NCBI GenBank assembly: GCA_043744895.1
Contig: JAYTTT010000112.1
Location: 3,381 to 67,380 of the forward strand
DNA from: Gemmatimonadota bacterium
GTDB taxonomy: Bacteria; Gemmatimonadota; Gemmatimonadetes; Gemmatimonadales; GWC2-71-9
DNA: 64,000 bases
Reading direction: 5' to 3'
Shown here: in pieces, positions 11,640-64,000 of the stretch
Layout: each line of letters starts with the position of its first letter
Numbering within the stretch: the first letter of the stretch is position 1
Made by a program: the position numbers and the translations under genes
The notes under the pieces: generated by a model
What the model was told of the DNA's origin: nothing
Databases searched by the model: none
The model's input: the letters and a program-made list of their open reading frames with translations, nothing else

Positions 11640-13021
11640 ATGCAACGATCCAAAGCGATGCTCCCAATAGTGGCCCTGGTCGCGTTGGCGGCTCAGAACG
11701 GGTCTGCCCAGGCGCCCCGGCCACTCAGCCAATGGGAGCGGACCGCCCGAGACCTGCTCAAGGAGTTGGTGGAGATCAACACCTCTGAGAGCGAGGGGAG
11801 CACGGCCAAGGCCGCGTACGCGATGGCCGCCAGACTCAAGGCGGCCGGGTTTCCCGACTCGGATGTCGTGGTAGTGGAACACGCCCCGCGAAAAGGCAAT
11901 CTGATCGCCCGGCTCCGGGGCCGATCGGGCGGGAAGAAGCCGATTCTCCTCCTGTCCCATATCGATGTGGTCGAGGCGAAGCCCGAGGACTGGACGTTGC
12001 CGCCGTTCAGCTTCATCGAAAAGGACGGCACCTTCTTCGGCCGTGGGGTGGCCGACAACAAGGATGAAGCCGCCATGGACCTGACCCTGATCATGCGAAT
12101 GAAGGCCGAGGGCCTCGTTCCCGATCGGGATATCATTGTCGCGCTGACTGCGGACGAGGAGGGCGGCCCCGCCAACGGGGTGGAGTGGCTGCTCCAGAAC
12201 CGGCGTCCACTGATCGATGCCGAATACGCGTTCAACGAGGGCGGCGGCGGCCGGGTCCGCGATGGCATCAAGCTGTCGAACGACGTCCAGGCCAGCGAGA
12301 AGAAGGTCGCGAGCTTCACTTTCGAGAGTACCAACCCCGGTGGTCACAGCTCAGTGCCGGTTAAGCTCTTGTCAAGCTCGGCGGGTTCGATTTCCCGGTC
12401 CGGCTCAACGAAATTACCAAGACCTACTTTGCCCGGTCGGCCTTGGTCACCGAGGGCCGGGTCTCGGCCGCCATGAAGGCGATCGCGACCAACCCGGCCG
12501 ATGCCGAGGCCGCCCGGATCTTGTCCGAGGACCCACGGTACAACTCGCAGTTGCGCACTACCTGCGTCGCGACGATGCTCGAGGGCGGGCACGCCCGCAC
12601 CGCGCTCCCGCAGCGTGCCCGGGCTCACGTCAATTGCCGGGTCCTTCCTGAGGAATCGCCCGATGACGTCCAGAGAACGTTGGAGCGCGTCATCGGCAAT
12701 CCGAAGGTGACCGTGACCCAGCTCGGGACCGCTCGGAACTCGCCGCCGTCACCGCTCACGGCGGATCTGATGACCCAGATCGAGCGGGTGTCCGGGCAGC
12801 TCTGGCCCGGGGTGCCGATCATTCCGACCATGAGCACCGGGGCCACCGACGGGGTCTACCTGCGGACCGCCGGGATTCCGACCTACGGCGTCTCAGGCCT
12901 CTTCTATACCGACCCCAACGCCCACGGGATGAACGAAAAGATCTCGGCCGAGGCGTTTTACCAGGGGCTCGAATTCATGTTTCGGCTGGTCAAGAGCATT
13001 ACCCGGCCGGGCGTGAGCTGA
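11640..13021 (+). pseudogene. Secreted M20/M25/M40 peptidase split by a frameshifting deletion at ~12365
   Basis: Frame 1: LSHIDVV, GRGVADNK, ADEEGG, NEGGGG, GGHSSVPVK. Continues in another frame as ALVKLGGFDFPVRLNEIT...LRTTCVATMLEGGHA..ALPQ...GATDG...AHGMNE. Confidence 0.75.
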
Positions 13022-53442: not shown

Positions 53443-53619
53443 CGCTCCGTCCACCGAGCACCGCGCCGTCTCACCAATCACCGGCGTCGGGCCCATGATC
53501 TACTGGTTGCCGTTCCTCAATGCGGGGGTGTTTCCGCTCGGCCTCGTCGTCGCGCCGGTGGTTGAGCCGCTCGAATCCGCCCGAGGGGCGACACACCCGT
53601 TATTTTCCCATGATCCTGA

Positions 53620-53657: not shown

Positions 53658-54815
53658 ATGACTACCGAACGACCCATCCACCGAGCGGCGATCGAGCGGC
53701 TGCTCCGGCAGTTTCCGGTCGTCGGCGTCATCGGCGCCCGCCAGGTCGGCAAGACCACGCTGGCTCGCCAGATCGCCGATCGGTGGCGGGGTCCAGCCGC
53801 CCATTTTGACCTGGAAGACGCCCGGGATCTTGCCCGGCTTGCCGAGCCGGCTCTTGCCCTCGGGAGCCTCCAGGGCTTGGTCGTGCTGGACGAAATCCAC
53901 CGGCGCCCCGAGTTATTCCCGTTGCTTCGGGTCCTCGCGGACCGGCCTCGCGTCAAGACCCGGTTTCTGGTCCTCGGCAGCGCCACACCCGAGTTGCTGA
54001 GGCAAAGCTCCGAAACGCTGGCCGGTCGGATCGGCTATTACGAGCTTCCCGGCCTGTCACTCCAGGAGGTGGGGGCCGAGGCGCTCGACCGGCTCTGGCT
54101 CCGGGGCGGTTTTCCCCGGGCCTATCTGGCCCGCAGCGCCGCCGAGAGCACCGCCTGGCGCACCAACTTCATCCGTACCTTCCTGGAACGAGACCTGCCC
54201 GGTTTCGGCGTCCGAACGAGCCCCACCACCATGGGGCGGTTCTGGTCGATGCTGGCCCATTACCATGGCCAGGTTCTCAACGGCTCGGAGCTCGGGCGCG
54301 CGCTGGGGGTGGCCGACACGACGGTGCGCCACTATCTCGACGTCCTCTGCGACACGTTCGTCGTCCGACAACTCACCCCGTGGCACGCCAACATCGGGAA
54401 GCGGCAGATCAAGGCGCCCAAAGTCTACGTGGCCGACAGCGGCCTGCTCCACACCCTCCTGGGGCTGTCGTCCCGGAACGACGTGGACCGGCATCCGAAA
54501 CTTGGCGCCTCCTGGGAGGGCTTTATTCTGGAATCGTTGATCGGCCATCTCGGGATCGATCGCCGTGAGCTCTTCTTCTGGGGGACCCATGCGGGCGCGG
54601 AGTTGGACTTGCTTCGAGTGCACCGGGGGCGCCGGCGGGGTTTCGAGATCAAGCGGACCAGTACGCCCAAGGTGACGCCATCGATGCGCACCGCTGTCGA
54701 GGACCTCAAGCTCGACCGACTCGACGTGATCCACGCCGGCGATCACACCTTTCCGCTCGGGCCCAAGATTCGGGCGGTGGCGGCGGGCCGCCTCCTCATC
54801 GATCTGGAACCGTGA
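53658..54815 (+). CDS. AAA_14/DUF4143 ATPase (intact)
   Basis: GARQVGKTT, VLDEIH, LGSA, SSETLAGR, RGGFP, FLERD, K.PKVY..DSGLLH, GASWEG, ELDL...GFEIK. Confidence 0.9.
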   Translation: MTTERPIHRAAIERLLRQFPVVGVIGARQVGKTTLARQIADRWRGPAAHFDLEDARDLARLAEPALALGSLQGLVVLDEIHRRPELFPLLRVLADRPRVKTRFLVLGSATPELLRQSSETLAGRIGYYELPGLSLQEVGAEALDRLWLRGGFPRAYLARSAAESTAWRTNFIRTFLERDLPGFGVRTSPTTMGRFWSMLAHYHGQVLNGSELGRALGVADTTVRHYLDVLCDTFVVRQLTPWHANIGKRQIKAPKVYVADSGLLHTLLGLSSRNDVDRHPKLGASWEGFILESLIGHLGIDRRELFFWGTHAGAELDLLRVHRGRRRGFEIKRTSTPKVTPSMRTAVEDLKLDRLDVIHAGDHTFPLGPKIRAVAAGRLLIDLEP

Positions 54816-54858
54816 CACCGTGCGGGCTAGGTTGCGTCCGTACCTCAGGAGCTAAAAC

Positions 54859-56796
54859 ATGATCCCAAGGTTGCCGTTCCCGCTTGTGTTGGTCGCCGCG
54901 GTGTTCACGGGGCCAACCGATGCGGCCCGGGCCCAGGCGCGTTCTGATTCAGCGTATCAGGTGGTTGCCACCCGGAACGTGATGGTGGTTGCCCGCGACG
55001 GCATGCGCCTGGCGACCGACGTCTACGCGCCGGGACGCAACGGAGTGGTGTCAGGCCGTTTTCCCGCCATCGTCGAACGGACCCCATACAACAAGGTCAG
55101 CGGGGCCGAGTCGCAGGTGGAGTACTTCGTACCACGGGGTTATGTGGTGGTCCGCCAGGACATCCGCGGGCGCTTTGCCTCCGAGGGCAAGTGGCGGCCG
55201 TTGCGGGACGACGGGCCCGACGGGGCCGACCTGCTGGCCTGGATCGCGGCCCAGCCGTGGTCCAATGGCAAGGTGGGCACCGTGGGGACGTCGTACAGCG
55301 GCGCCACCCAGCATGCCATTGCCATCACCAACGCGCCCAGCCTGGCCGCGATGGTGCCGGTCGACGCGATGAGCAATGCCGGCTACTACGGGATCCGCCA
55401 CCACGGTGCGTTCGAGTTGCGCTGGCTCAACTGGATCATGACGTTAGGCAACGCCACCGGCACCCGGGCGGCCGCTGACGGGCTCTCGGCCAGCCAGAAC
55501 GGCGTCGCGGCCGCGGCGCGTGCCGCCGCGACCCCCGCGGCCTCCGGCGCGCTCCAGGAACTCGGGACCATGGTCCGTGAGTACGCGTCGGCCCTGCCCC
55601 TCCGGCCCGGCACTACCCCGCTCAAGTTTGCGCCCGAGTACGAGTCGTGGCTGGTGGAGGCGATGCGCCACGGGGACAACGACAGCTTCTGGCGCGACAT
55701 GGGCGCCGGGGTGGTCGATCATCTGAAGGAGTACCAGGACGTCCCGGCCCATCACTTCACCGGGTGGTACGACTCGTGGGGCACCCAGGTGGCCAACATG
55801 AACTACGTCGAGCTGTCGCGAGCCAAGAAGAGCCTCCAGCGCCTGACGATCGGCCCGTGGACCCACGGCGGGCAGGGGCTGAGTTTCGCTGGGATTGCCG
55901 AATTTGGCCCGGAGGCTGCGCTCGACATGAACGCCCTTCGCATGCGCTGGTTCGATCGCTGGTTGCTGGGGATCGACAATGGGGTGGACCGCGAGCCGCC
56001 GGTCCGGGTCTTCGTCATGGGAGGGGGGGATGGTCGCAAGACCCCGGACGGCCGCCTTTTCGTCGGCGGACGGTGGCGCGAGGAGCGCGAGTGGCCGCTG
56101 GCCCGCACCGCCTACACACCCTACTACCTGCACTCCGATGGCGTTTTGTCCCCTGAGCTGCCCAAGGCGGCGGCGCCGACCTCCTACGCCTTCGACCCGC
56201 GCCATCCGGTGCCCACGATCGGGGGCAACGTCTCGTCGGAGGGCATTCTGATGCCGCGCGGCGCCCAGGATCAACGTTGCTCGAGCGCGCACTGGCTCTG
56301 CCAGGACGCCCTTCCGCTCTCGGCCCGACAGGACGTGCTGGTGTTTCAGACGGCGCCCCTGGAGCGTGACATCGAAGTCACCGGCCGCTTGGTCGTGAAG
56401 CTCTGGGCCGGCTCCGACGCGAAGGACACCGACTTCACCGTCAAACTGGTCGACGTCTACCCGCCGAACGCCGACTATCCGGCGGGGGTGGACCTCAATG
56501 TTGCCGACGGCATCGTCCGGGCCCGGTACCGCACCTCGCTCACCCGGCCCACGCTCCTCACCGGCAGCGATCCGCGCGAATACACCATCGAGATGTACCC
56601 CACCTCGCTGGTGTTCGCCCGCGGCCACCGCCTCCGCCTCGACGTGTCGAGCAGCAACTTCCCACGCTTCGACGTCAATCCCAACACCGGCGAACCCCTC
56701 GGAAGGCAACGGAGCCGGCGGATCGCGCAGAACAGCGTGTACCACGACCCAATCCATCTTTCCCGGATCCTACTGCCCATCATCCCCAAGCCCTGA
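54859..56796 (+). CDS. Secreted CocE/NonD-family hydrolase (peptidase S15)
   Basis: RTPYNK, QDIRGRFASEG, nucleophile GTSYSG, GWYD, GPWTH, SSNFPRFDVNPNTG. Confidence 0.92.
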   Translation: MIPRLPFPLVLVAAVFTGPTDAARAQARSDSAYQVVATRNVMVVARDGMRLATDVYAPGRNGVVSGRFPAIVERTPYNKVSGAESQVEYFVPRGYVVVRQDIRGRFASEGKWRPLRDDGPDGADLLAWIAAQPWSNGKVGTVGTSYSGATQHAIAITNAPSLAAMVPVDAMSNAGYYGIRHHGAFELRWLNWIMTLGNATGTRAAADGLSASQNGVAAAARAAATPAASGALQELGTMVREYASALPLRPGTTPLKFAPEYESWLVEAMRHGDNDSFWRDMGAGVVDHLKEYQDVPAHHFTGWYDSWGTQVANMNYVELSRAKKSLQRLTIGPWTHGGQGLSFAGIAEFGPEAALDMNALRMRWFDRWLLGIDNGVDREPPVRVFVMGGGDGRKTPDGRLFVGGRWREEREWPLARTAYTPYYLHSDGVLSPELPKAAAPTSYAFDPRHPVPTIGGNVSSEGILMPRGAQDQRCSSAHWLCQDALPLSARQDVLVFQTAPLERDIEVTGRLVVKLWAGSDAKDTDFTVKLVDVYPPNADYPAGVDLNVADGIVRARYRTSLTRPTLLTGSDPREYTIEMYPTSLVFARGHRLRLDVSSSNFPRFDVNPNTGEPLGRQRSRRIAQNSVYHDPIHLSRILLPIIPKP

Positions 56797-56805
56797 CCCG
56801 CCCTC

Positions 56806-56854
56806 GCCGAGCGCCGAGCCCCGAGTGCCGAGCCCCGAGTGCCGAGCGCCGAGA
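56806..56854. repeat. Intergenic tandem heptamer repeat, 7 copies of SCCGAGY
   Basis: gccgagc gccgagc cccgagt gccgagc cccgagt gccgagc gccgaga. Confidence 0.9.
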
Positions 56855-56898: not shown

Positions 56899-58092
56899 AT
56901 GCAGAATCCGACTCTCGCCCTCGCCTTCTCCGGGGGCCTCGATACCAGCTACTGCGTGCCCCGGCTCACCGACCAGGGCTTTGCCGTCCACACCGTCTAC
57001 GTCAACACCGGCGGCGCCGGCCCTGACGAACGGGCCCAGATCCGCCGCCAGGCCATGGCGGTCGGAGCCGTCGAGCACCACGAAATTGATGCCCGCCAAG
57101 CCGTCTTCGAACGGTTCGTCCGCTATCTGATCCAGGGCAACGTGCTTCGGGGCGAGGTCTACCCGCTGAGCGTGGCCGCGGAACGAACCCAGCAAGCTAT
57201 CTCGGTCGTCGAGGTCGCCCGCCGGATTGGGGCCGGCTCGGTGGCCCACGGGTCGACCGGGGCCGGCAACGATCAGGTCCGCTTCGACATCGCGCTCCGG
57301 GTCTTGGCCCCGGAACTCGCCATCGTGACTCCGATCCGGGACGAAGGTCTCTCGCGCGACGCCGCGATCGCCTACCTCGAGGCCCGGAAGCTTCCGGTGC
57401 CGCCGAAGGCTGGCGCGTTCAGCATCAACAAGGGCCTCTGGGGCACCACCTGGGGCGGCGGTTGGACCCACGACACCTGGGCCGCGCCCCCGGCCGAGCT
57501 CCTCGATCCGCCCGCCGATGCCCCCGCCCCCAAGGATCTGGTCGTGGGCTGGGAGCAGGGCGTTCCGGTCAGTCTCGACGGCACCAAGCTGGCCCCCGCC
57601 GACCTGATTGCCACGATCAGCCGGGCGGCGGAGTCCTACGGGATCGGCCACAACATCCATGTCGGCGAAACGGCCCTTGGCATCAAGGGCCGGATCGGCT
57701 TCGAAGCCGGCGCCGCCATCATCCTGATCACCGCCCATCGCGATCTCGAGAAGCTGGTCCTCACCAAGTGGCAGAGCTACTGGAAGGACCACCTGTCCCG
57801 CTTCTATGGCGACCGGCTCCATGAAGGCCTCTACTTCGATCCGGCCCTCCGGGACATCGAGGCCCTGATCACCAGTTCGCAGCAGCGGGTCACCGGCGAC
57901 ACCAGGGTTCGGCTCGCCCCGGGCCGCTTCATGGTCACCGGAACCCGGAGTCCTTTCTCGTTGATGGACCGATCGGTCGCCACCTACGGCGAAGAAAACC
58001 GGCTCTGGACCGGCGACGAAGCCCGGGCCTTTGCCCGGATCGGTGCGATTCCCTCATTGCTCGCGGCCAAGGTTGCCGCGAAAGGCGGCTGA
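56899..58092 (+). CDS. argG: Argininosuccinate synthase
   Basis: LAFSGGLDTS, YPLSV.AER, AHGSTGAGNDQVRFD, TPIRD, GIKGRIGFEA. Confidence 0.95.
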   Translation: MQNPTLALAFSGGLDTSYCVPRLTDQGFAVHTVYVNTGGAGPDERAQIRRQAMAVGAVEHHEIDARQAVFERFVRYLIQGNVLRGEVYPLSVAAERTQQAISVVEVARRIGAGSVAHGSTGAGNDQVRFDIALRVLAPELAIVTPIRDEGLSRDAAIAYLEARKLPVPPKAGAFSINKGLWGTTWGGGWTHDTWAAPPAELLDPPADAPAPKDLVVGWEQGVPVSLDGTKLAPADLIATISRAAESYGIGHNIHVGETALGIKGRIGFEAGAAIILITAHRDLEKLVLTKWQSYWKDHLSRFYGDRLHEGLYFDPALRDIEALITSSQQRVTGDTRVRLAPGRFMVTGTRSPFSLMDRSVATYGEENRLWTGDEARAFARIGAIPSLLAAKVAAKGG

Positions 58093-58093
58093 C

Positions 58094-59188
58094 GTGGTCC
58101 GCACGACGCGGGTGCGGCTCGACCGGATCGCCTCCTCGACTAAGAACGCTCGGCTTGCCCCCGACGTGATTCTCGGCGACGACATCCTGGCCGAGGAGGG
58201 ACGGATCGTCGCGGTCCGCATTCTGACCGACAAGTCGAGCTATAACACGGTCGAAGATCCGAGCGGGCGGATGATGGCGCTCCGGGCCGGCGATGTCCTG
58301 GCCGGAACGTTAGGCTCGCGCCGGGCACTCCGGGGCTACGCCGGCGAAGTGCCCGCCTCCGTGGCCGTCGGCGACACCATCGAGGTCCTCAACTTGGGCG
58401 GCATTCTTGGCCGCTGTACCTCGATCAATCCCGACATCGGGCCGCCGTTCAAGGCTGAGGTCCTGGGCGCCGTTCTGACCTTCCCGGAGCTGGGCGACCG
58501 AATCGGCCGGCCGGCCACGATCAAGGACGGCGCGATTCCGGCGGCCGACGTGCTCAGTTCCGATACCCCGATCGTGTTCGTCGCGGGTACCTGCATGAAC
58601 GCCGGGAAGACGGTGGCGGCGACCGAGCTGGTCCGGGGGTTGTCGCGCCGGGGGCTCAAGGTCGGCGCGGCCAAGCTGACGGGCGTGTCGTTGATGCGCG
58701 ACACGCTCTCGATGCTCGACGCGGGGGCGGTGGCGGCCCTCACCTTCAACGATGCCGGGATCGCGAGCACCCATCCGGGGCAGACGGTCGGGGTCGCCAA
58801 GGGCTTGCTCAACCGGCTCGGCAGCCGCCAGGCCGGGTCGCCCGATGTGATCGTGGCCGAGCTGGGCGACGGAATTCTCGGCGAGTACGGCGTCCAGGAC
58901 ATTCTCCTCGACGCCCAGTTGATGAGCGTGGCGGCGGCCCACGTGATGGCCGCCCCCGATCCGGTGGCCTGCTGGGGGGCGCTCGAACTGTTCCGCGACC
59001 GGTTCAAGCTACCGATCGCGGTGTTCACCGGGCCGGCCACCGACAATCAGGTTGGGCGCGACTTCATTGAAGGCACCCTTGGCTTGCCCTCGCACAACGC
59101 CCTTCGGGACGCCGCCGGCTTGGTCGACCGGATCGAGCCGCTGGTTCGAGCGGCCATGGCGGCCGCCGTTCCAGCCGCGGCGGGCTAA
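58094..59188 (+). CDS. Uncharacterised P-loop protein, DUF1611/DgcN-like, embedded in the arg operon
   Basis: GTG start 1 nt after the argG stop; stop overlaps the argC ATG; VAGTCMNAGKT, AAKLTG, DVIVAELGDG. Confidence 0.7.
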   Translation: MVRTTRVRLDRIASSTKNARLAPDVILGDDILAEEGRIVAVRILTDKSSYNTVEDPSGRMMALRAGDVLAGTLGSRRALRGYAGEVPASVAVGDTIEVLNLGGILGRCTSINPDIGPPFKAEVLGAVLTFPELGDRIGRPATIKDGAIPAADVLSSDTPIVFVAGTCMNAGKTVAATELVRGLSRRGLKVGAAKLTGVSLMRDTLSMLDAGAVAALTFNDAGIASTHPGQTVGVAKGLLNRLGSRQAGSPDVIVAELGDGILGEYGVQDILLDAQLMSVAAAHVMAAPDPVACWGALELFRDRFKLPIAVFTGPATDNQVGRDFIEGTLGLPSHNALRDAAGLVDRIEPLVRAAMAAAVPAAAG

Positions 59189-60216
59189 TGCGGGTCGCGG
59201 TCATCGGGGCGGCGGGCTATGTCGGCGGCGAGTTGCTCCGGCTCCTGTTCCAGCACCCGGACATATCCGACGTCCTGGCCACCAGCCGAAGTCAGGCGGG
59301 CAGGCCGTTAGGCGCCGCCCATCCGGCCCTGGCGTACCGGGCCGAGGCCCGGTTCTCCGGAGCCACGCCCGCGGAAGCGGCCCGAGGCATGGATGTAGTC
59401 TTCCTGGCCCTCGAACACGGCGAGTCCTCGAAGCTGATGGGCGACATTGTCGGTCAGGGGGCGGGGCTGATCATCGACTTGGCGGCTGATTTCCGGATTC
59501 GCGATGGCCGGCTCTACGCGGCGTACTACGGCGCTCACCCCGCGCCGGGGTTGGTCCATCGGTTCCAGTACGGCCTGGCTGACGTGCGGGGTCGTGAGCT
59601 GAGGGGGGCCACGGCGATCGCGGCTCCGGGATGCTTTGCCACGGCATCGCAGTTGGCGCTCTACGTCCTCCGCGCGGCTCCGCTGGTGGGCGAGCCCGTG
59701 ATCTATGGGATCACCGGTTCGAGCGGGGCGGGCGTTCATCCCAAGCCAACCACCCATCATCCGGCCCGGGCCCATAACGTGTTCGCCTACTCGGTCCTGG
59801 GCCACCGGCACGAGGCCGAGATGGCCGAGCAATGGCGGGCGTGGACCGGCCGGCCGGAGGCAACGCCGCGGCTCCTGTCGCACTCGGGGCCGTTCGTCCG
59901 GGGTATTTACGCCACCGTGCACGCCCATTTGCGGGAGCCGGTCGGCGCGGCGGTTGTCGCCGGGGCCGCGGCGGCATTCGCGGGCCGGCCGTTTGTCCGG
60001 GTGCTCGATGCGCCGCCGCAATTGACCCATGTGGTCGGCACCAACGACGCGCTGATTCACGCCGCCACCACCGCGGATGGCCGCGAAGTGGCGGTGACCG
60101 TGGCGATCGACAACTTGGTCAAAGGCGCCGGCGGCCAAGCGGTGCAGGCGATGAATTTGGCGCTCGGTCTCCCGGAAACGGCTGGCCTCCGGGTGGCGGC
60201 CCCGTTTCCGATCTAA
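59188..60216 (+). CDS. argC: N-acyl-gamma-glutamyl-phosphate reductase
   Basis: GAAGYVGGELLRLL..HP, VFLALEHG, IIDLAADFR, PGCFAT, HRHEAE, IDNLVKGAGGQAVQAMN. Confidence 0.93.
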   Translation: MRVAVIGAAGYVGGELLRLLFQHPDISDVLATSRSQAGRPLGAAHPALAYRAEARFSGATPAEAARGMDVVFLALEHGESSKLMGDIVGQGAGLIIDLAADFRIRDGRLYAAYYGAHPAPGLVHRFQYGLADVRGRELRGATAIAAPGCFATASQLALYVLRAAPLVGEPVIYGITGSSGAGVHPKPTTHHPARAHNVFAYSVLGHRHEAEMAEQWRAWTGRPEATPRLLSHSGPFVRGIYATVHAHLREPVGAAVVAGAAAAFAGRPFVRVLDAPPQLTHVVGTNDALIHAATTADGREVAVTVAIDNLVKGAGGQAVQAMNLALGLPETAGLRVAAPFPI

Positions 60217-60238: not shown

Positions 60239-61390
60239 ATGACGGTAGCAACGACCGGGGCCTTGCTCCCCGTCTATGCCCAGTTTCCCCTCCGGGCCGT
60301 ATCCGGGCAGGGGTCGTGGATCGTGGACGACCAGGGCCAGAAGTGGCTCGACGCCTATGGTGGCCATGCGGTCGCGGCAACCGGCCACTCCCACCCCGAG
60401 GTGGTCCGGGCCATTTCGGAGCAGGCGGCCAAGCTGATCTTCTACTCTACGGTAATTCCCCATGCCGGCCGGGAAACGCTGGCCGAGGTGATTGCGTCGC
60501 TCTGTCCCGACCCGCTGGCCAAGGTGTTCTTTTGCAACAGCGGAGCGGAGGCCAACGAGAACGCTTTGGTGCTGGCCCGCAAAGTGACCGGCCGTCAGCG
60601 GATCGTCTCGGTGGCCGGTGGGTGGCATGGGCGCACGGTGGCCACGCTCGCGGTGACCGACGGGGCCAAGTATGAGGACGGGGCGCGACGAGCCGGGATT
60701 CCGTTGTCCTTCAAAGTGGCGTTCAACGACGTCACCGCCATGAGCGCCGCGGTCGACGAGTCGGTCGCGGCCGTTATCGTGGAGCCGGTCCAGGGCATGG
60801 CGGGTGCCCGCGATTGCTCGCCGGATTTCCTCCGAGCGGCCCGGATCGCGTGCGACCGGGAGGGCGCCGTCCTGATCTTCGACGAAATCCAGTGCGGAGT
60901 CGGGCGCTGCGGCGCGTTTACCGCCGCCGAGGCGTACGAAGTGATTCCCGATATTCTGACGCTGGCCAAGGGGCTCGCGGCCGGTCTGCCGATCGGCGCT
61001 ATGGTCGCCACGAACGCCATCACGGCAGGTCTCAAGATCGGCGATCTGGGAAGCACCTTCGGCGGCGGCCCGGTGCCGTGCGCCGCGGCGCTTGCCAATC
61101 TCGAAGTAATCCGCCGGGACCGGTTGGTGGAGAATGCCGTGATGGTGGGCGACCACATCCGCCGCGCGGCAGGTCGGATTCCCGCGGTCACCGACATTTC
61201 CGGCCGAGGGTTACTGATCGGTCTCACGCTCGACCGGCCGGCGGCCGGGGTGCAGCGGGCGTTGTTCGAGTCGCGGGTCCTGACCGGTACCGCTGGCGAT
61301 CCAAACATCCTCCGGCTGATGCCGCCGCTGTCCTTTTCTCGCACCGAAGCGAACCTTCTGATCGACGCCTTGCGTCGGGTCCTCTCATGA
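60239..61390 (+). CDS. argD: N-acylornithine aminotransferase (class III)
   Basis: FFCNSGAEANE, WHGRT, VEPVQG, IFDEIQCG.GR, LAKGLAAG.PIGA, STFGG. Confidence 0.9.
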   Translation: MTVATTGALLPVYAQFPLRAVSGQGSWIVDDQGQKWLDAYGGHAVAATGHSHPEVVRAISEQAAKLIFYSTVIPHAGRETLAEVIASLCPDPLAKVFFCNSGAEANENALVLARKVTGRQRIVSVAGGWHGRTVATLAVTDGAKYEDGARRAGIPLSFKVAFNDVTAMSAAVDESVAAVIVEPVQGMAGARDCSPDFLRAARIACDREGAVLIFDEIQCGVGRCGAFTAAEAYEVIPDILTLAKGLAAGLPIGAMVATNAITAGLKIGDLGSTFGGGPVPCAAALANLEVIRRDRLVENAVMVGDHIRRAAGRIPAVTDISGRGLLIGLTLDRPAAGVQRALFESRVLTGTAGDPNILRLMPPLSFSRTEANLLIDALRRVLS

Positions 61391-62400
61391 GAAAACGTGA
61401 TTTCCTGGCCACCGAGGATCTCGGCGCCGACGGCTTCAAGGCCATGCTTGATCTGGCCGCGCGGGTCAAGCGTGGTGAGGTGCCAGGTGGCCTCGAAGGC
61501 AAGATCATGGCCGCCGCGTTCTTGGACCCGAGTCTCCGCACCCGGGCCAGTTTCGAGTCGGCCATGTTCATGCACGGCGGGCATATGATCGTGCTGGAAC
61601 CGGGGCGGGGCAGCTGGAGCCTCGAAACCGAGCAGGGCGCCGTCATGGAAGGCACCGCCGTCGAGCACTTGATCGAGACCTCCCGGGTCCTGGGTCGGTA
61701 CGCGGATGTGATCGGGGTTCGGGTCTTTCCCCGCGGCACCGAGTGGGTCCGGGAGCGCCAGGACCGGATCATCAAGGATTTCGCCGCGTACAGCGAGAAG
61801 TCGGTGATCAATCTCGAATCGGCTCGCCGGCATCCCTGCCAGGGTCTGGCCGACGCGCTGACCCTGAAAGAAAAACTCGGCGATCCCAAGGGCAAGAAGT
61901 TCGTGATGAGCTGGGCCTGGCACCCGAAGGCGCTGCCCACGGCGGTGCCGGCCAGCGCGGCCATTGCCGCGGCGCAGTTAGGCATGGACGTGGTCATCGC
62001 CCGGCCCCAGGGGTTCGACCTTGACGCCGAGGACATGGCGACGATCTATCAGCAGGCGGCGGCTGCGGGGGGCCGAGTCACGCTCGCGCAGTCCCAAACG
62101 GATGCCATGGTCGGGGCCGATGCGGTCTATGTGAAGTCCTGGGGCTCGCTCCAGCACTACGGCAAGCCAGAGGAGGAGAAGGAGTTCCGGGCCGGGCTTC
62201 GGGGCTGGAAGATGACCACCGATTTGCTTCGGGCCACCAAGGCGGGCAGAGGGATCGTGATGCATTGTCTCCCGGTGCGGCGGAACGTCGAAATCGACGA
62301 TGCGGTCCTCGACGGCCCCTGCTCGGTGGTAATCGACGAAGCGGAGAACCGGCTCCATGTTCAGCGGGCGCTGCTCCTTGAGCTGATTGGAAAGAAATAA
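61387..62400 (+). CDS. argF': N-acylornithine carbamoyltransferase (AOTCase/SOTCase family; succinyl-type signature)
   Basis: SLRTRASF, WSLETEQGAVMEGTAVEH, HPCQGLAD, WAWHPKALP.AV, YVKSW, MHCLPVRRNV. Confidence 0.9.
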   Translation: MRKRDFLATEDLGADGFKAMLDLAARVKRGEVPGGLEGKIMAAAFLDPSLRTRASFESAMFMHGGHMIVLEPGRGSWSLETEQGAVMEGTAVEHLIETSRVLGRYADVIGVRVFPRGTEWVRERQDRIIKDFAAYSEKSVINLESARRHPCQGLADALTLKEKLGDPKGKKFVMSWAWHPKALPTAVPASAAIAAAQLGMDVVIARPQGFDLDAEDMATIYQQAAAAGGRVTLAQSQTDAMVGADAVYVKSWGSLQHYGKPEEEKEFRAGLRGWKMTTDLLRATKAGRGIVMHCLPVRRNVEIDDAVLDGPCSVVIDEAENRLHVQRALLLELIGKK

Positions 62401-63338
62401 TGTCGCCTCATGACGTGACCCGGCCTTTGGCGGGGTTGAAGGGTGCGCTCCGGTACGTTCGGGCCTATCGAGACCATGTGTTCGTGGTCAAGGTTGGCGG
62501 TGACGTCGTGGCCGACGGGCATGGACTCGACCAGGTGTCGGCCCAGCTGGGGCTCCTCCACAGCCTCGGCATCCGGATCGTCATCGTCCACGGCGGCGGT
62601 CCCCAGGCCACGGCGCTGAGCCGCCGCCTCGGGCACGAGCCCGAGATCGTGGCCGGGCGCCGGGTCACCGACGATGCGGCCCTCGAAGTGGTCAAAATGG
62701 TATTTGCCGGAACGGCCAACCTCGATTTGCTCTGCGCCCTTCGGCGGCACGGGGTGCAGGCGGTGGGCTTGAGCGGCGTCGATGCCGACCTGCTGTCGGC
62801 CACCAAGCGGCCGCCGGTGACGGTCACGGACGATGCCGGGGTGACCCGGGTGGTCGATTACGGGCACGTCGGCGAGATCGAGCACGTCGACGGCCGGGTG
62901 TTGACGACGCTCCTCGATCAGCGGTTCGTGCCGGTGATCTGTTCCTTGGCCGGCGACCGGGACGGTCACGTGTTCAACGTCAATGCCGACACCGTGGCCG
63001 AACGGATCGCGGTCGATCTCAAGGCTCAGAAACTGATCTTCCTGACCGGGGTGGCCGGTGTGCTTCGCGATCGCAACGATCCCTCCTCGCTCGTCACGTT
63101 CGCCGATCCCGACGATCTGGCCCAGTTGATGGAAGCCGGTGCCCTCGCCGGCGGCATGCGGCCCAAGGTCGAGGCCTGCATCCGGGCGGCGACCAGCGGG
63201 GTCGAGCGGACCCACATCATTGACGGCCGGGCCACCGACTCGCTGTTGCAGGAAGTGTTCACCGGATCTGGAACCGGGACGATGATCGTGGGCAAGAAAG
63301 AAAAGGCGACCTACGTCGGGGCTGAACTTGCGGAATGA
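62400..63338 (+). CDS. argB: N-acylglutamate kinase
   Basis: FVVKVGG, VHGGGPQ, GRRVTD, GLSGVD, NVNADTVA, GGMRPKV, IIDGR; 312 aa with no fused GNAT domain. Confidence 0.93.
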   Translation: MSPHDVTRPLAGLKGALRYVRAYRDHVFVVKVGGDVVADGHGLDQVSAQLGLLHSLGIRIVIVHGGGPQATALSRRLGHEPEIVAGRRVTDDAALEVVKMVFAGTANLDLLCALRRHGVQAVGLSGVDADLLSATKRPPVTVTDDAGVTRVVDYGHVGEIEHVDGRVLTTLLDQRFVPVICSLAGDRDGHVFNVNADTVAERIAVDLKAQKLIFLTGVAGVLRDRNDPSSLVTFADPDDLAQLMEAGALAGGMRPKVEACIRAATSGVERTHIIDGRATDSLLQEVFTGSGTGTMIVGKKEKATYVGAELAE

Positions 63339-64000
63339 AGTCGAGCTCCTGAAGGCGTTGGTGGCGTGCCCCTCAATCAGCGGCACCGAGGACGCGATTG
63401 CCCGGCTGGTCGAACAGGTCGCCGCGGGGTTCGGGCTTGACGTGGTACGCGACGATACCGGGGTCAAGATATCGGTCGATACCGGCCGGCCGGGCCGGAC
63501 GTTGGCGTTCCTTTCCCATCTCGATGTCGTGCCGCCGGGCGACGGCTGGACTCGCGATCCCTTTACCCCGGTGGTCGAGGGTGACCTGCTCTACGGCCGG
63601 GGCTCCGGCGACGCCAAGGCGTCGGTGGCCTCGATGCTGCTGGCCGCGCTCGACTTTGCCGAACAGCGAGGGAATTCGGTTGGCGGCTCGCTGTTGGTGG
63701 TGTTCGGTCTGGGCGAAGAAACGAAACACACGACGATGGGCCGGGCGGTCGCCACCTTGCCTCCGATCACCGCGGCGGTCGTTGGGGAGCCGACCAATCT
63801 CGACGTAGCGATTGCCCAGCGGGGCCTGATGATGGTCGACCTGGTGGCGCGCGGCGACCAGCGGCACGCGGGTTACGCCTCCGAGGGCAATTGTGCCAAT
63901 GCCATTACCCGGTTGGCGGCCGACCTGGTCCGGCTGCCGTCGCTGCTTCAGGATCGCATCCATCCGGTGTTAGGCACGACGACGGTGACGGCCACCATGA
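63328..64000 (+). CDS. argE: ArgE/DapE-family deacylase (partial, runs off the right edge)
   Basis: Manual translation: LLKALVACPSISGTE, FLSHLDVVP, LYGRGSGDAKASV, GEET, VVGEPT, QRHAG; TTG start is approximate. Confidence 0.8.
   Translation, partial: MRNEVELLKALVACPSISGTEDAIARLVEQVAAGFGLDVVRDDTGVKISVDTGRPGRTLAFLSHLDVVPPGDGWTRDPFTPVVEGDLLYGRGSGDAKASVASMLLAALDFAEQRGNSVGGSLLVVFGLGEETKHTTMGRAVATLPPITAAVVGEPTNLDVAIAQRGLMMVDLVARGDQRHAGYASEGNCANAITRLAADLVRLPSLLQDRIHPVLGTTTVTATM

Follow-up and report, generated by a model that had tools for sequence, protein, structure and literature searches.

Arginine synthesis through N-succinylated intermediates is an established route in the Bacteroidota (GapMind 2020, PMC7311316, as far as its text was available), where the N-succinylornithine transcarbamylase (SOTCase) of Bacteroides fragilis (1js1, 2fg6) represents the transcarbamylase step. 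The corresponding acetyl enzyme is the N-acetylornithine transcarbamylase (AOTCase) of Xanthomonas campestris (3kzc). According to the sections of the Shi 2015 review available to us (PMC4581275), AOTCases have Glu92, Asn185 and Lys302, and SOTCases have A/S/P/V/Q, P and V/I/E at the same three positions. Here we describe an arginine operon in a contig of a Gemmatimonadota bacterium (JAYTTT010000112.1), of which a stretch of 64,000 nucleotides was analysed (the window). The operon contains a transcarbamylase gene, argF', with the succinyl-type residue at each of these positions. From its sequence and gene context, the operon very probably encodes the succinyl route, with ArgF' acting as an N-succinylornithine transcarbamylase.

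A second GapMind study (2026, PLoS Genet, PMC13759103; bioRxiv 10.1101/2024.10.14.618325) comes closest to this locus. In the portions of it that were accessible, an alternative N-succinylglutamate synthase is predicted in Steroidobacter denitrificans (ACG33_RS14135/A0A127FCT3), with homologues in 109 genera; the prediction is marked there as untested. Ala, Pro, Ser or Val occupies position 92 in 90% of 70 neighbouring ArgF' proteins, and this residue is used there to infer succinylated intermediates (S1B text). The inference drawn here is thus already made in that study for such operons, and our finding is largely anticipated by it. The string 'Gemmatimonad' does not occur in the text or text-readable supplements of the study, of which the image Figure S2 may include such genera; its accessible portions also contain no discussion of the BioD-like nucleotide residues or of the ArgB position described below. 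In a literature search we found no paper joining Gemmatimonadota, arginine biosynthesis and succinylornithine.

The transcarbamylase gene and the positions that bear on its specificity are as follows.

61387..62400, plus strand: argF', 337 amino acids, N-acylornithine transcarbamylase, predicted N-succinyl-L-ornithine transcarbamylase
61660..61662, plus strand: Val92 (GTC), at the site of AOTCase Glu92 and SOTCase Pro90, which is the main specificity switch
61936..61938, plus strand: Pro184 (CCC), at the site of AOTCase Asn185; the second SOTCase marker, located in the proline-rich loop
62290..62292, plus strand: Glu302 (GAA), at the site of AOTCase Lys302; the third SOTCase marker, for which V, I or E is allowed
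61921..61929, plus strand: His179-Pro-Lys181, which together with Arg298 (62278-62280) probably corresponds to the succinyl-anchoring H176/R178/R278 of B. fragilis

The assignment of ArgF' to the AOTCase/SOTCase group is supported by several features. The protein matches the profile NF003384 with 398 bits (cut-off 288) and falls below the cut-offs of the ordinary ornithine transcarbamylase (OTCase) profiles NF001986 (202 against 306) and TIGR00658 (185 against 281). It has the carbamoyl-phosphate motifs SxRT (S49-x-R51-T52), HPxQ (H149-P-x-Q152) and HxLP (H293-x-L295-P296), which define the transcarbamylase superfamily (PMC4581275, available sections). The group features W77, E144, K250 and the loop 179-188 align with those of AOTCase, and a Lys250 loop stands in place of the DxxxSMG motif that the 240's loop of an ordinary OTCase would show. 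In a phmmer search of the PDB the X. campestris AOTCase and its mutants came first (E 1e-88 to 1e-89), followed by the B. fragilis SOTCase (E 1e-47); the top match was 3l06, titled as an E92V mutant with carbamyl phosphate and an N-succinyl ligand.

A sequence-only reading of this DNA had placed valine at codon 61660-61662 and given glutamate at the corresponding position in the Xanthomonas enzyme and proline in the Bacteroides type. All of this was borne out: the 80's-loop segment quoted in that reading is present, and in its first block (query 4-106, chain 24-126) the phmmer alignment to X. campestris AOTCase has no gaps, so that Val92 sits on Glu92. The column holds Glu in the wild type 3kzc, Val in 3l06, and Pro in the enzymes of B. 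finegoldii and Parabacteroides distasonis. The alignment to the solved enzymes proposed in that reading places no Glu at position 92 of ArgF', and Val stands there instead. That reading named a single marker for its specificity signature; all three published SOTCase markers (positions 92, 185 and 302) are in fact present, and none of the three AOTCase residues is retained. None of the 120 aligned proteins (the query and its 119 best homologues) departs from Val92, Pro184 or Glu302. Among 80 GTDB loci, Val92 is found in 78 of the 78 that cover the site, and Pro at 185 and Glu302 are each found in 80 of 80. Because it is conserved in both sets, Val92 is not a chance substitution. The PDB titles further list E92A, P, S and V mutants of AOTCase with an N-succinyl ligand. 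The rule that separates acetyl from succinyl enzymes by residue reportedly dates from 2007. For the effect of position 92 we relied on the available parts of the review (PMC4581275) and of the two GapMind papers, together with PDB titles. At the level of its sequence, ArgF' represents a natural equivalent of the E92V mutant. A further state of this position was seen in the ArgF' proteins of the Cytophagales Persicobacter and Bernardetia (L095, L096), which have Gln at 92, a residue given for SOTCases in the available sections of the review (PMC4581275) and absent from the solved E92 mutants.

ArgF' is like the Bacteroidota SOTCases in its non-Glu residue at 92, Pro at 185 and non-Lys residue at 302, in a one-residue insertion before HPxQ, and in the presumed His and Arg succinyl anchors, which Xanthomonas has too. 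It departs from them with Val in place of Pro at 92 and with Glu in place of Ile or Val at 302, and it is only 34-37% identical to the five Bacteroidota enzymes compared, against 44.6% to that of X. sacchari. The X. campestris AOTCase (3kzc) and its E92V mutant (3l06) are the closest solved structures in both sequence and fold, with the same loops and carbamoyl-phosphate motifs; however, Glu92, Asn185 and Lys302 of that enzyme are all replaced here. Three further segments had been proposed to lie closer to the Bacteroides enzyme. This held for residues 79-84 (Bacteroidales 5/6, Xanthomonas 2/6) and slightly for residues 176-188 (9-10/13 against 8/13), but residues 148-156 gave a tie (6/9 for both), and a 58-residue stretch with the last two segments scored higher on Xanthomonas (46.9 bits) than on B. 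fragilis (37.4 bits). Closeness of the whole protein to Bacteroides is ruled out by the identities, by the shared positions (60 common only to ArgF' and Xanthomonas, 19 only to ArgF' and Bacteroidota) and by a 36-row tree made up of the query, 7 of the 119 homologues, 17 of 34 distant ArgF' proteins, 5 Bacteroidota enzymes, 1 Xanthomonas enzyme and 5 OTCases. The Gemmatimonadales and Bacteroidota enzymes form separate clades in this tree, with support of 100/100 each, so that by sequence ArgF' belongs to a clade of its own, apart from the Bacteroidota enzymes. The backbone of the tree is unresolved and carries long-branch warnings, and it does not decide on a transfer from Bacteroidota or from Xanthomonas. 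An AlphaFold model of ArgF' (mean predicted local distance difference test score, pLDDT, 86.5) gave a template-modelling (TM) score of 0.90 to AOTCase and about 0.80 to the B. fragilis SOTCase; its pLDDT falls below 50 at residues 73-90, which adjoin Val92, so the pocket is not readable from it.

The loss of Glu92 could also mean that the enzyme is relaxed rather than succinyl-specific, accepting both acetyl and succinyl substrates, or that it uses another dicarboxylic acyl group. Its clade is separate from both characterised enzymes, it has Lys for B. fragilis Arg178 and Glu for Val or Ile at 302, and the first enzyme of the route would come from a family with a predicted function only. The presumed succinyl anchors, aligned to B. 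finegoldii, comprise two identical residues (His179, Arg298) and one conservative replacement (Lys181); the same three are found in Xanthomonas, so they are necessary and not diagnostic. However, Lys also stands at the Arg178 site in P. distasonis, Bernardetia and Fulvitalea, Glu302 is among the SOTCase states listed in the available sections of the review (PMC4581275), and the absence of any variation at the site points to a single fixed substrate. We regard a relaxed or other-acyl enzyme as improbable.

The succinyl reading of ArgF' is accompanied by a compact operon in the order argG, a hypothetical P-loop gene, argC, argD, argF', argB, argE, argH and argR. Its junctions are overlapping or nearly abutting; the start of argF' overlaps the stop of argD, and its stop overlaps the start of argB. 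The genes that accompany argF' in the window are listed below.

56899..58092, plus strand: argG, argininosuccinate synthase, TIGR00032 over cut-off; the ATG at 56899 is an inferred start, the longest open reading frame (ORF) running from 56839
58094..59188, plus strand: conserved hypothetical P-loop protein, 364 amino acids, with a DUF1611/DgcN/BioD-like C-terminal domain; candidate alternative ArgA (N-succinylglutamate synthase)
59188..60216, plus strand: argC, N-acylglutamyl-phosphate reductase, TIGR01850 over cut-off
60239..61390, plus strand: argD, N-acylornithine aminotransferase, assigned by operon position and by its best matches NF002874 and TIGR00707, both below their cut-offs
62400..63338, plus strand: argB, stand-alone N-acylglutamate kinase, TIGR00761 over cut-off
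63328..64000, plus strand: argE-like M20 deacylase, predicted N-succinylcitrulline desuccinylase, extending beyond the window to 64392

The operon is conserved across the 80 GTDB loci. Its order is that of the Cytophagales Persicobacter and Bernardetia (GNAT, argG, C, D, F', B, M20, H) with the exception of the first enzyme, the P-loop gene lying inside the operon and a GNAT argA being absent from it. The likeness to the Bacteroidota route thus extends to the order G-C-D-F'-B-E-H and to a Bacteroidota-type M20 deacylase, whereas the P-loop protein and the longer, classical N-terminus of ArgB set it apart. The Bacteroidota proteins (Persicobacter, Bernardetia) give ArgG, C, B, E and H higher scores than those of X. 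sacchari do, and only ArgF' shows the opposite; the Xanthomonas side of this comparison is a single divergent comparator whose argH is cut by the locus edge. The contrast is largest for ArgE, with 178 bits to Persicobacter ArgE and 43.5 bits to X. sacchari ArgE; the Xanthomonas deacylase is of another type (25% identity).

The gene between argG and argC is likely to encode the first enzyme of the route, because no ArgJ, full-length ArgA or ordinary OTCase was found in the 84.7%-complete genome. The P-loop gene lies between argG and argC in all 60 of the 80 examined loci that show both, and it is conserved as well as its operon neighbours. The protein has a weak match to PF07755 (DUF1611) and no NCBIfam match at E 0.001, thus none to the DgcN family NF041892; sequence searches against the PDB gave nothing, or only P-loop matches. 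Its model (pLDDT 96.9) matches with its C-terminal domain 2g0t (Z 16.9), 2obn (Z 15.9), BioD (Z 15.2) and DgcN 7xrj (Z 14.9). These matches have root-mean-square deviations of 2.8-3.2 over 179-187 residues (DgcN 7xrj, 3.2 over 184), and at 13-16% identity the likeness to DgcN/DUF1611 proteins and BioD is one of fold; they barely reach the N-terminal 100-150 residues. Foldseek returned BioD and signal recognition particle (SRP) GTPases, with DgcN absent among the matches listed. The genome has a separate DUF1611/DgcN-like gene on contig C133 (8356-9342; L180), cut by the contig end, with a PF07755 match of E 4e-72 and 274.5 bits on NF041892 (below the cut-off of 480); aligned to it by hhalign, the P-loop protein gave 35 columns at a probability of 34%. 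Judging by neighbourhood and fold, the P-loop gene looks like a member of the ACG33_RS14135 family. As in the accessible description of the Steroidobacter cluster, a hypothetical gene with a remote likeness to DgcN 7XRJ stands in an arg operon without ArgA, beside an ArgF' with one of A/P/S/V/T at 92, and the same succinyl inference applies; in contrast to that cluster, the operon here includes argE.

The distribution of the two genes across 151 Gemmatimonadota genomes is in line with the succinyl reading. The P-loop gene occurs in 49 genomes, a close argF' in 42 and both in 41; ArgJ occurs in 49, none of which has argF' or the P-loop gene. These counts follow genera in genomes that are kin rather than independent, and do not amount to a statistical test. 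Outside the close relatives, 80 distant metagenome loci have a P-loop gene 35-48% identical to that of the window, and 38 of them have an argF'. Position 92 is Thr in 33 of these, Ser in 2, Ala in 2, Val in 1 and Glu in none, and Pro185 is present in all 36 that cover its site; Thr lies outside the set of tested mutants. The large group of distant operons with Thr at 92 (33/38; among L100-L179) has argH divergently upstream of argR-argG. Because homologues of the P-loop gene also occur in genomes with only an ordinary-type OTCase, the gene is not tied to SOTCase. Such homologues without a close argF' (L081-L084, L087-L091) are 34-47% identical, and four of the five inspected lie in an argR-X-argC-argD-argB operon.

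The remaining arginine enzymes were sought in the organism's own genome (4.77 Mb, 66% G+C, 84.7% complete). ArgF' is the single PF00185 match in that assembly, and at this completeness we found no ordinary OTCase (PF00185 search), no ArgJ, no full-length ArgA (TIGR01890) and no fused N-acetylglutamate synthase/kinase (NAGS/K), the last of which AOTCase is reported to accompany (PMC4490483, available part). Three Bacteroidota GNAT ArgA candidates had no tblastn match in the genome at E 1e-4. A weak TIGR01890 match on contig C187 was rejected as ArgA, since it adjoins a methyltransferase and a MarR-like gene and reads as part of an arsenic-resistance set. A GNAT on contig C484 (12216-12830; L182) has 40% identity to the one that separates argB from argC in the arg operon of X. 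sacchari. Its neighbours are an acyl-CoA synthetase-like and an oligopeptidase-like gene, and it is unlikely to be ArgA because it is unlinked to arg genes.

These observations bear on the function that databases give to the enzyme. All named homologues of ArgF' are labelled N-acetylornithine carbamoyltransferase, which would make it an ordinary AOTCase with the acetyl group supplied by the P-loop gene product or by the unlinked GNAT. In keeping with this are the NF003384 match above cut-off, the nearness of sequence and model to Xanthomonas AOTCase, the presence of DgcN, an acetyltransferase, among the top structural matches of the P-loop protein, and the identity of the C484 GNAT to the Xanthomonas arg-operon GNAT. 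However, the label carries no weight, because enzymes of Parabacteroides and the Cytophagales that have Pro, Ala or Gln at 92 bear it too; all three AOTCase markers are absent, the fused NAGS/K that distinguishes the Xanthomonas system was not found, and the C484 GNAT sits among unrelated genes. An acetyl route is, on this evidence, quite improbable, and ArgF' is most likely, from its sequence, an N-succinylornithine transcarbamylase carrying the database label of the acetyl enzyme. Scarcely credible is a bypass in which a lysY/lysZ/lysJ-like (LysW-type) cluster at a contig end (C3:9600-12784; L183) supplies ornithine-type intermediates and the acyl route is dispensable, since no ordinary OTCase was found that could use free ornithine, the operon in the window is complete and conserved in 80 loci, and the C3 cluster probably serves lysine synthesis.

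The kinase of the operon has an unusual residue beside its substrate-binding site.

62658..62660, plus strand: ArgB Arg87, directly before the conserved substrate-binding Arg88, equivalent to E. coli position 65

By aligned ranges, ArgB Arg88 falls on E. coli Arg66, which is described as an N-acetylglutamate (NAG)-binding residue (PMC3236213, available part). The four solved acetyl kinases shown have Leu (twice), Met or His at the preceding position, and X. sacchari has Leu. Arg occupies it in all 80 Gemmatimonadales argF' loci, in all 31 distant loci that show ArgB, in all four loci combining the P-loop gene with an OTCase, and in all three from Bacteroidota. In a literature search we found no paper on this position of ArgB (Leu65 of N-acetylglutamate kinase). 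The ArgJ-bearing genomes served as a comparison: 30 were searched, of which 12 had a match at E 1e-30 and 18 had none. Arg87 is only in part a clean succinyl marker, since five of these 12 loci have Arg as well (Leu 6, Ser 1); it agrees with the succinyl reading without being specific to it. For the five genomes concerned (family f2; L186, L190, L192, L194, L195), either the marker is unspecific or the ArgJ cycle may use succinyl groups.

Several points weigh against a succinyl route in this organism. The majority of discriminating positions in ArgF' are shared with the Xanthomonas enzyme, and the E92V switch was demonstrated in the Xanthomonas backbone; the substrate preference of enzymes in the present clade is a prediction from sequence. 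The co-occurrence counts come from related genomes, and the absences are limited by the incompleteness of the assembly. A P-loop homologue occurs without a close argF' in eight genomes, of which the five inspected (G039, G123, G137, G057, G043) have only ordinary-type OTCase matches elsewhere. On the side of the kinase, the nearest solved relatives of ArgB are ordinary acetylglutamate kinases, and its Arg residue recurs in the ArgJ-bearing genomes. The sequence-only reading had proposed that the organism makes arginine through N-succinylated intermediates, and this is nevertheless supported by the three residues, by the sole PF00185 match, by the failure to find ArgJ, full-length ArgA or a fused NAGS/K, and by the Cytophagales-like gene order, even if the proposal is no longer new after the GapMind 2026 study in its accessible text.

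ArgF' is predicted to carbamylate N-succinyl-L-ornithine because it is the only ornithine-type transcarbamylase found and has Val, Pro and Glu at the three published positions. In the route we propose, glutamate would be converted to N-succinylglutamate by the product of the P-loop gene (58094-59188), and ArgB, ArgC and ArgD would then yield N-succinylornithine in turn. ArgF' would carbamylate this to N-succinyl-L-citrulline, ArgE would remove succinate to give citrulline, and ArgG and ArgH would complete the synthesis of arginine. The residues, gene order, conservation, co-occurrence and folds are observed; every substrate assignment is inferred from them, including the succinyl preference of ArgB, C, D and E. 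In the active site, loss of the Glu92 carboxylate would let the succinyl carboxylate sit against His179, Lys181 and Arg298, as the published mutants suggest.

A more far-reaching scenario concerns the chemistry of the first step. Four residues of the P-loop protein, G171, K172, K194 and E256, do not vary across 76 rows; a Lys of Mycobacterium tuberculosis BioD aligns with K194. We take these four residues to correspond to the nucleotide, Mg and catalytic residues of BioD; an ATP-dependent ligase is therefore possible in place of a CoA transferase. The Gemmatimonadales route might then have been assembled apart from that of the Bacteroidota, with a BioD-type ligase (G171-K172, T173, K194, E256) that joins free succinate to glutamate and recycles the succinate released by ArgE, and with the Arg beside the substrate-binding Arg of ArgB as a second succinyl determinant. 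Taken as a whole, this scenario is tentative and rather unlikely. If it were true, succinyl protection would reach some genomes with an ordinary OTCase or ArgJ, and the acetyl-specific AOTCase would be an exception within ArgF'.

Some features of the surroundings were also recorded. Beyond the window on the same contig (64389 onward), translations show argH and argR, followed by hisG, hisD, hisC, hisH, hisA, hisB and hisF-like ORFs, which together make an arginine-histidine gene supercluster. Short repeats with SAE(C/H)R-like translations were noted between and inside ORFs at about 53450-53500, 54815-54860 and 56795-56840, and again on contig C484 at approximately 11700-12100. Of the 80 GTDB loci closest to argF', 79 are titled as Gemmatimonadota or Gemmatimonadales metagenome-assembled genomes (MAGs) and one as Bacillota; the latter (G151, L029) has the same operon at 63-75% identity and is probably mislabelled or a mixed bin.

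The operon offers a compact and complete set of genes, argE included, for the study of the predicted alternative ArgA. The succinyl reading would correct a systematic database label and would make ArgF' a natural enzyme of the E92V type with a Xanthomonas-like backbone. It would also carry the succinyl arginine route into much of the Gemmatimonadales (41 of the 74 sampled genomes of the family).

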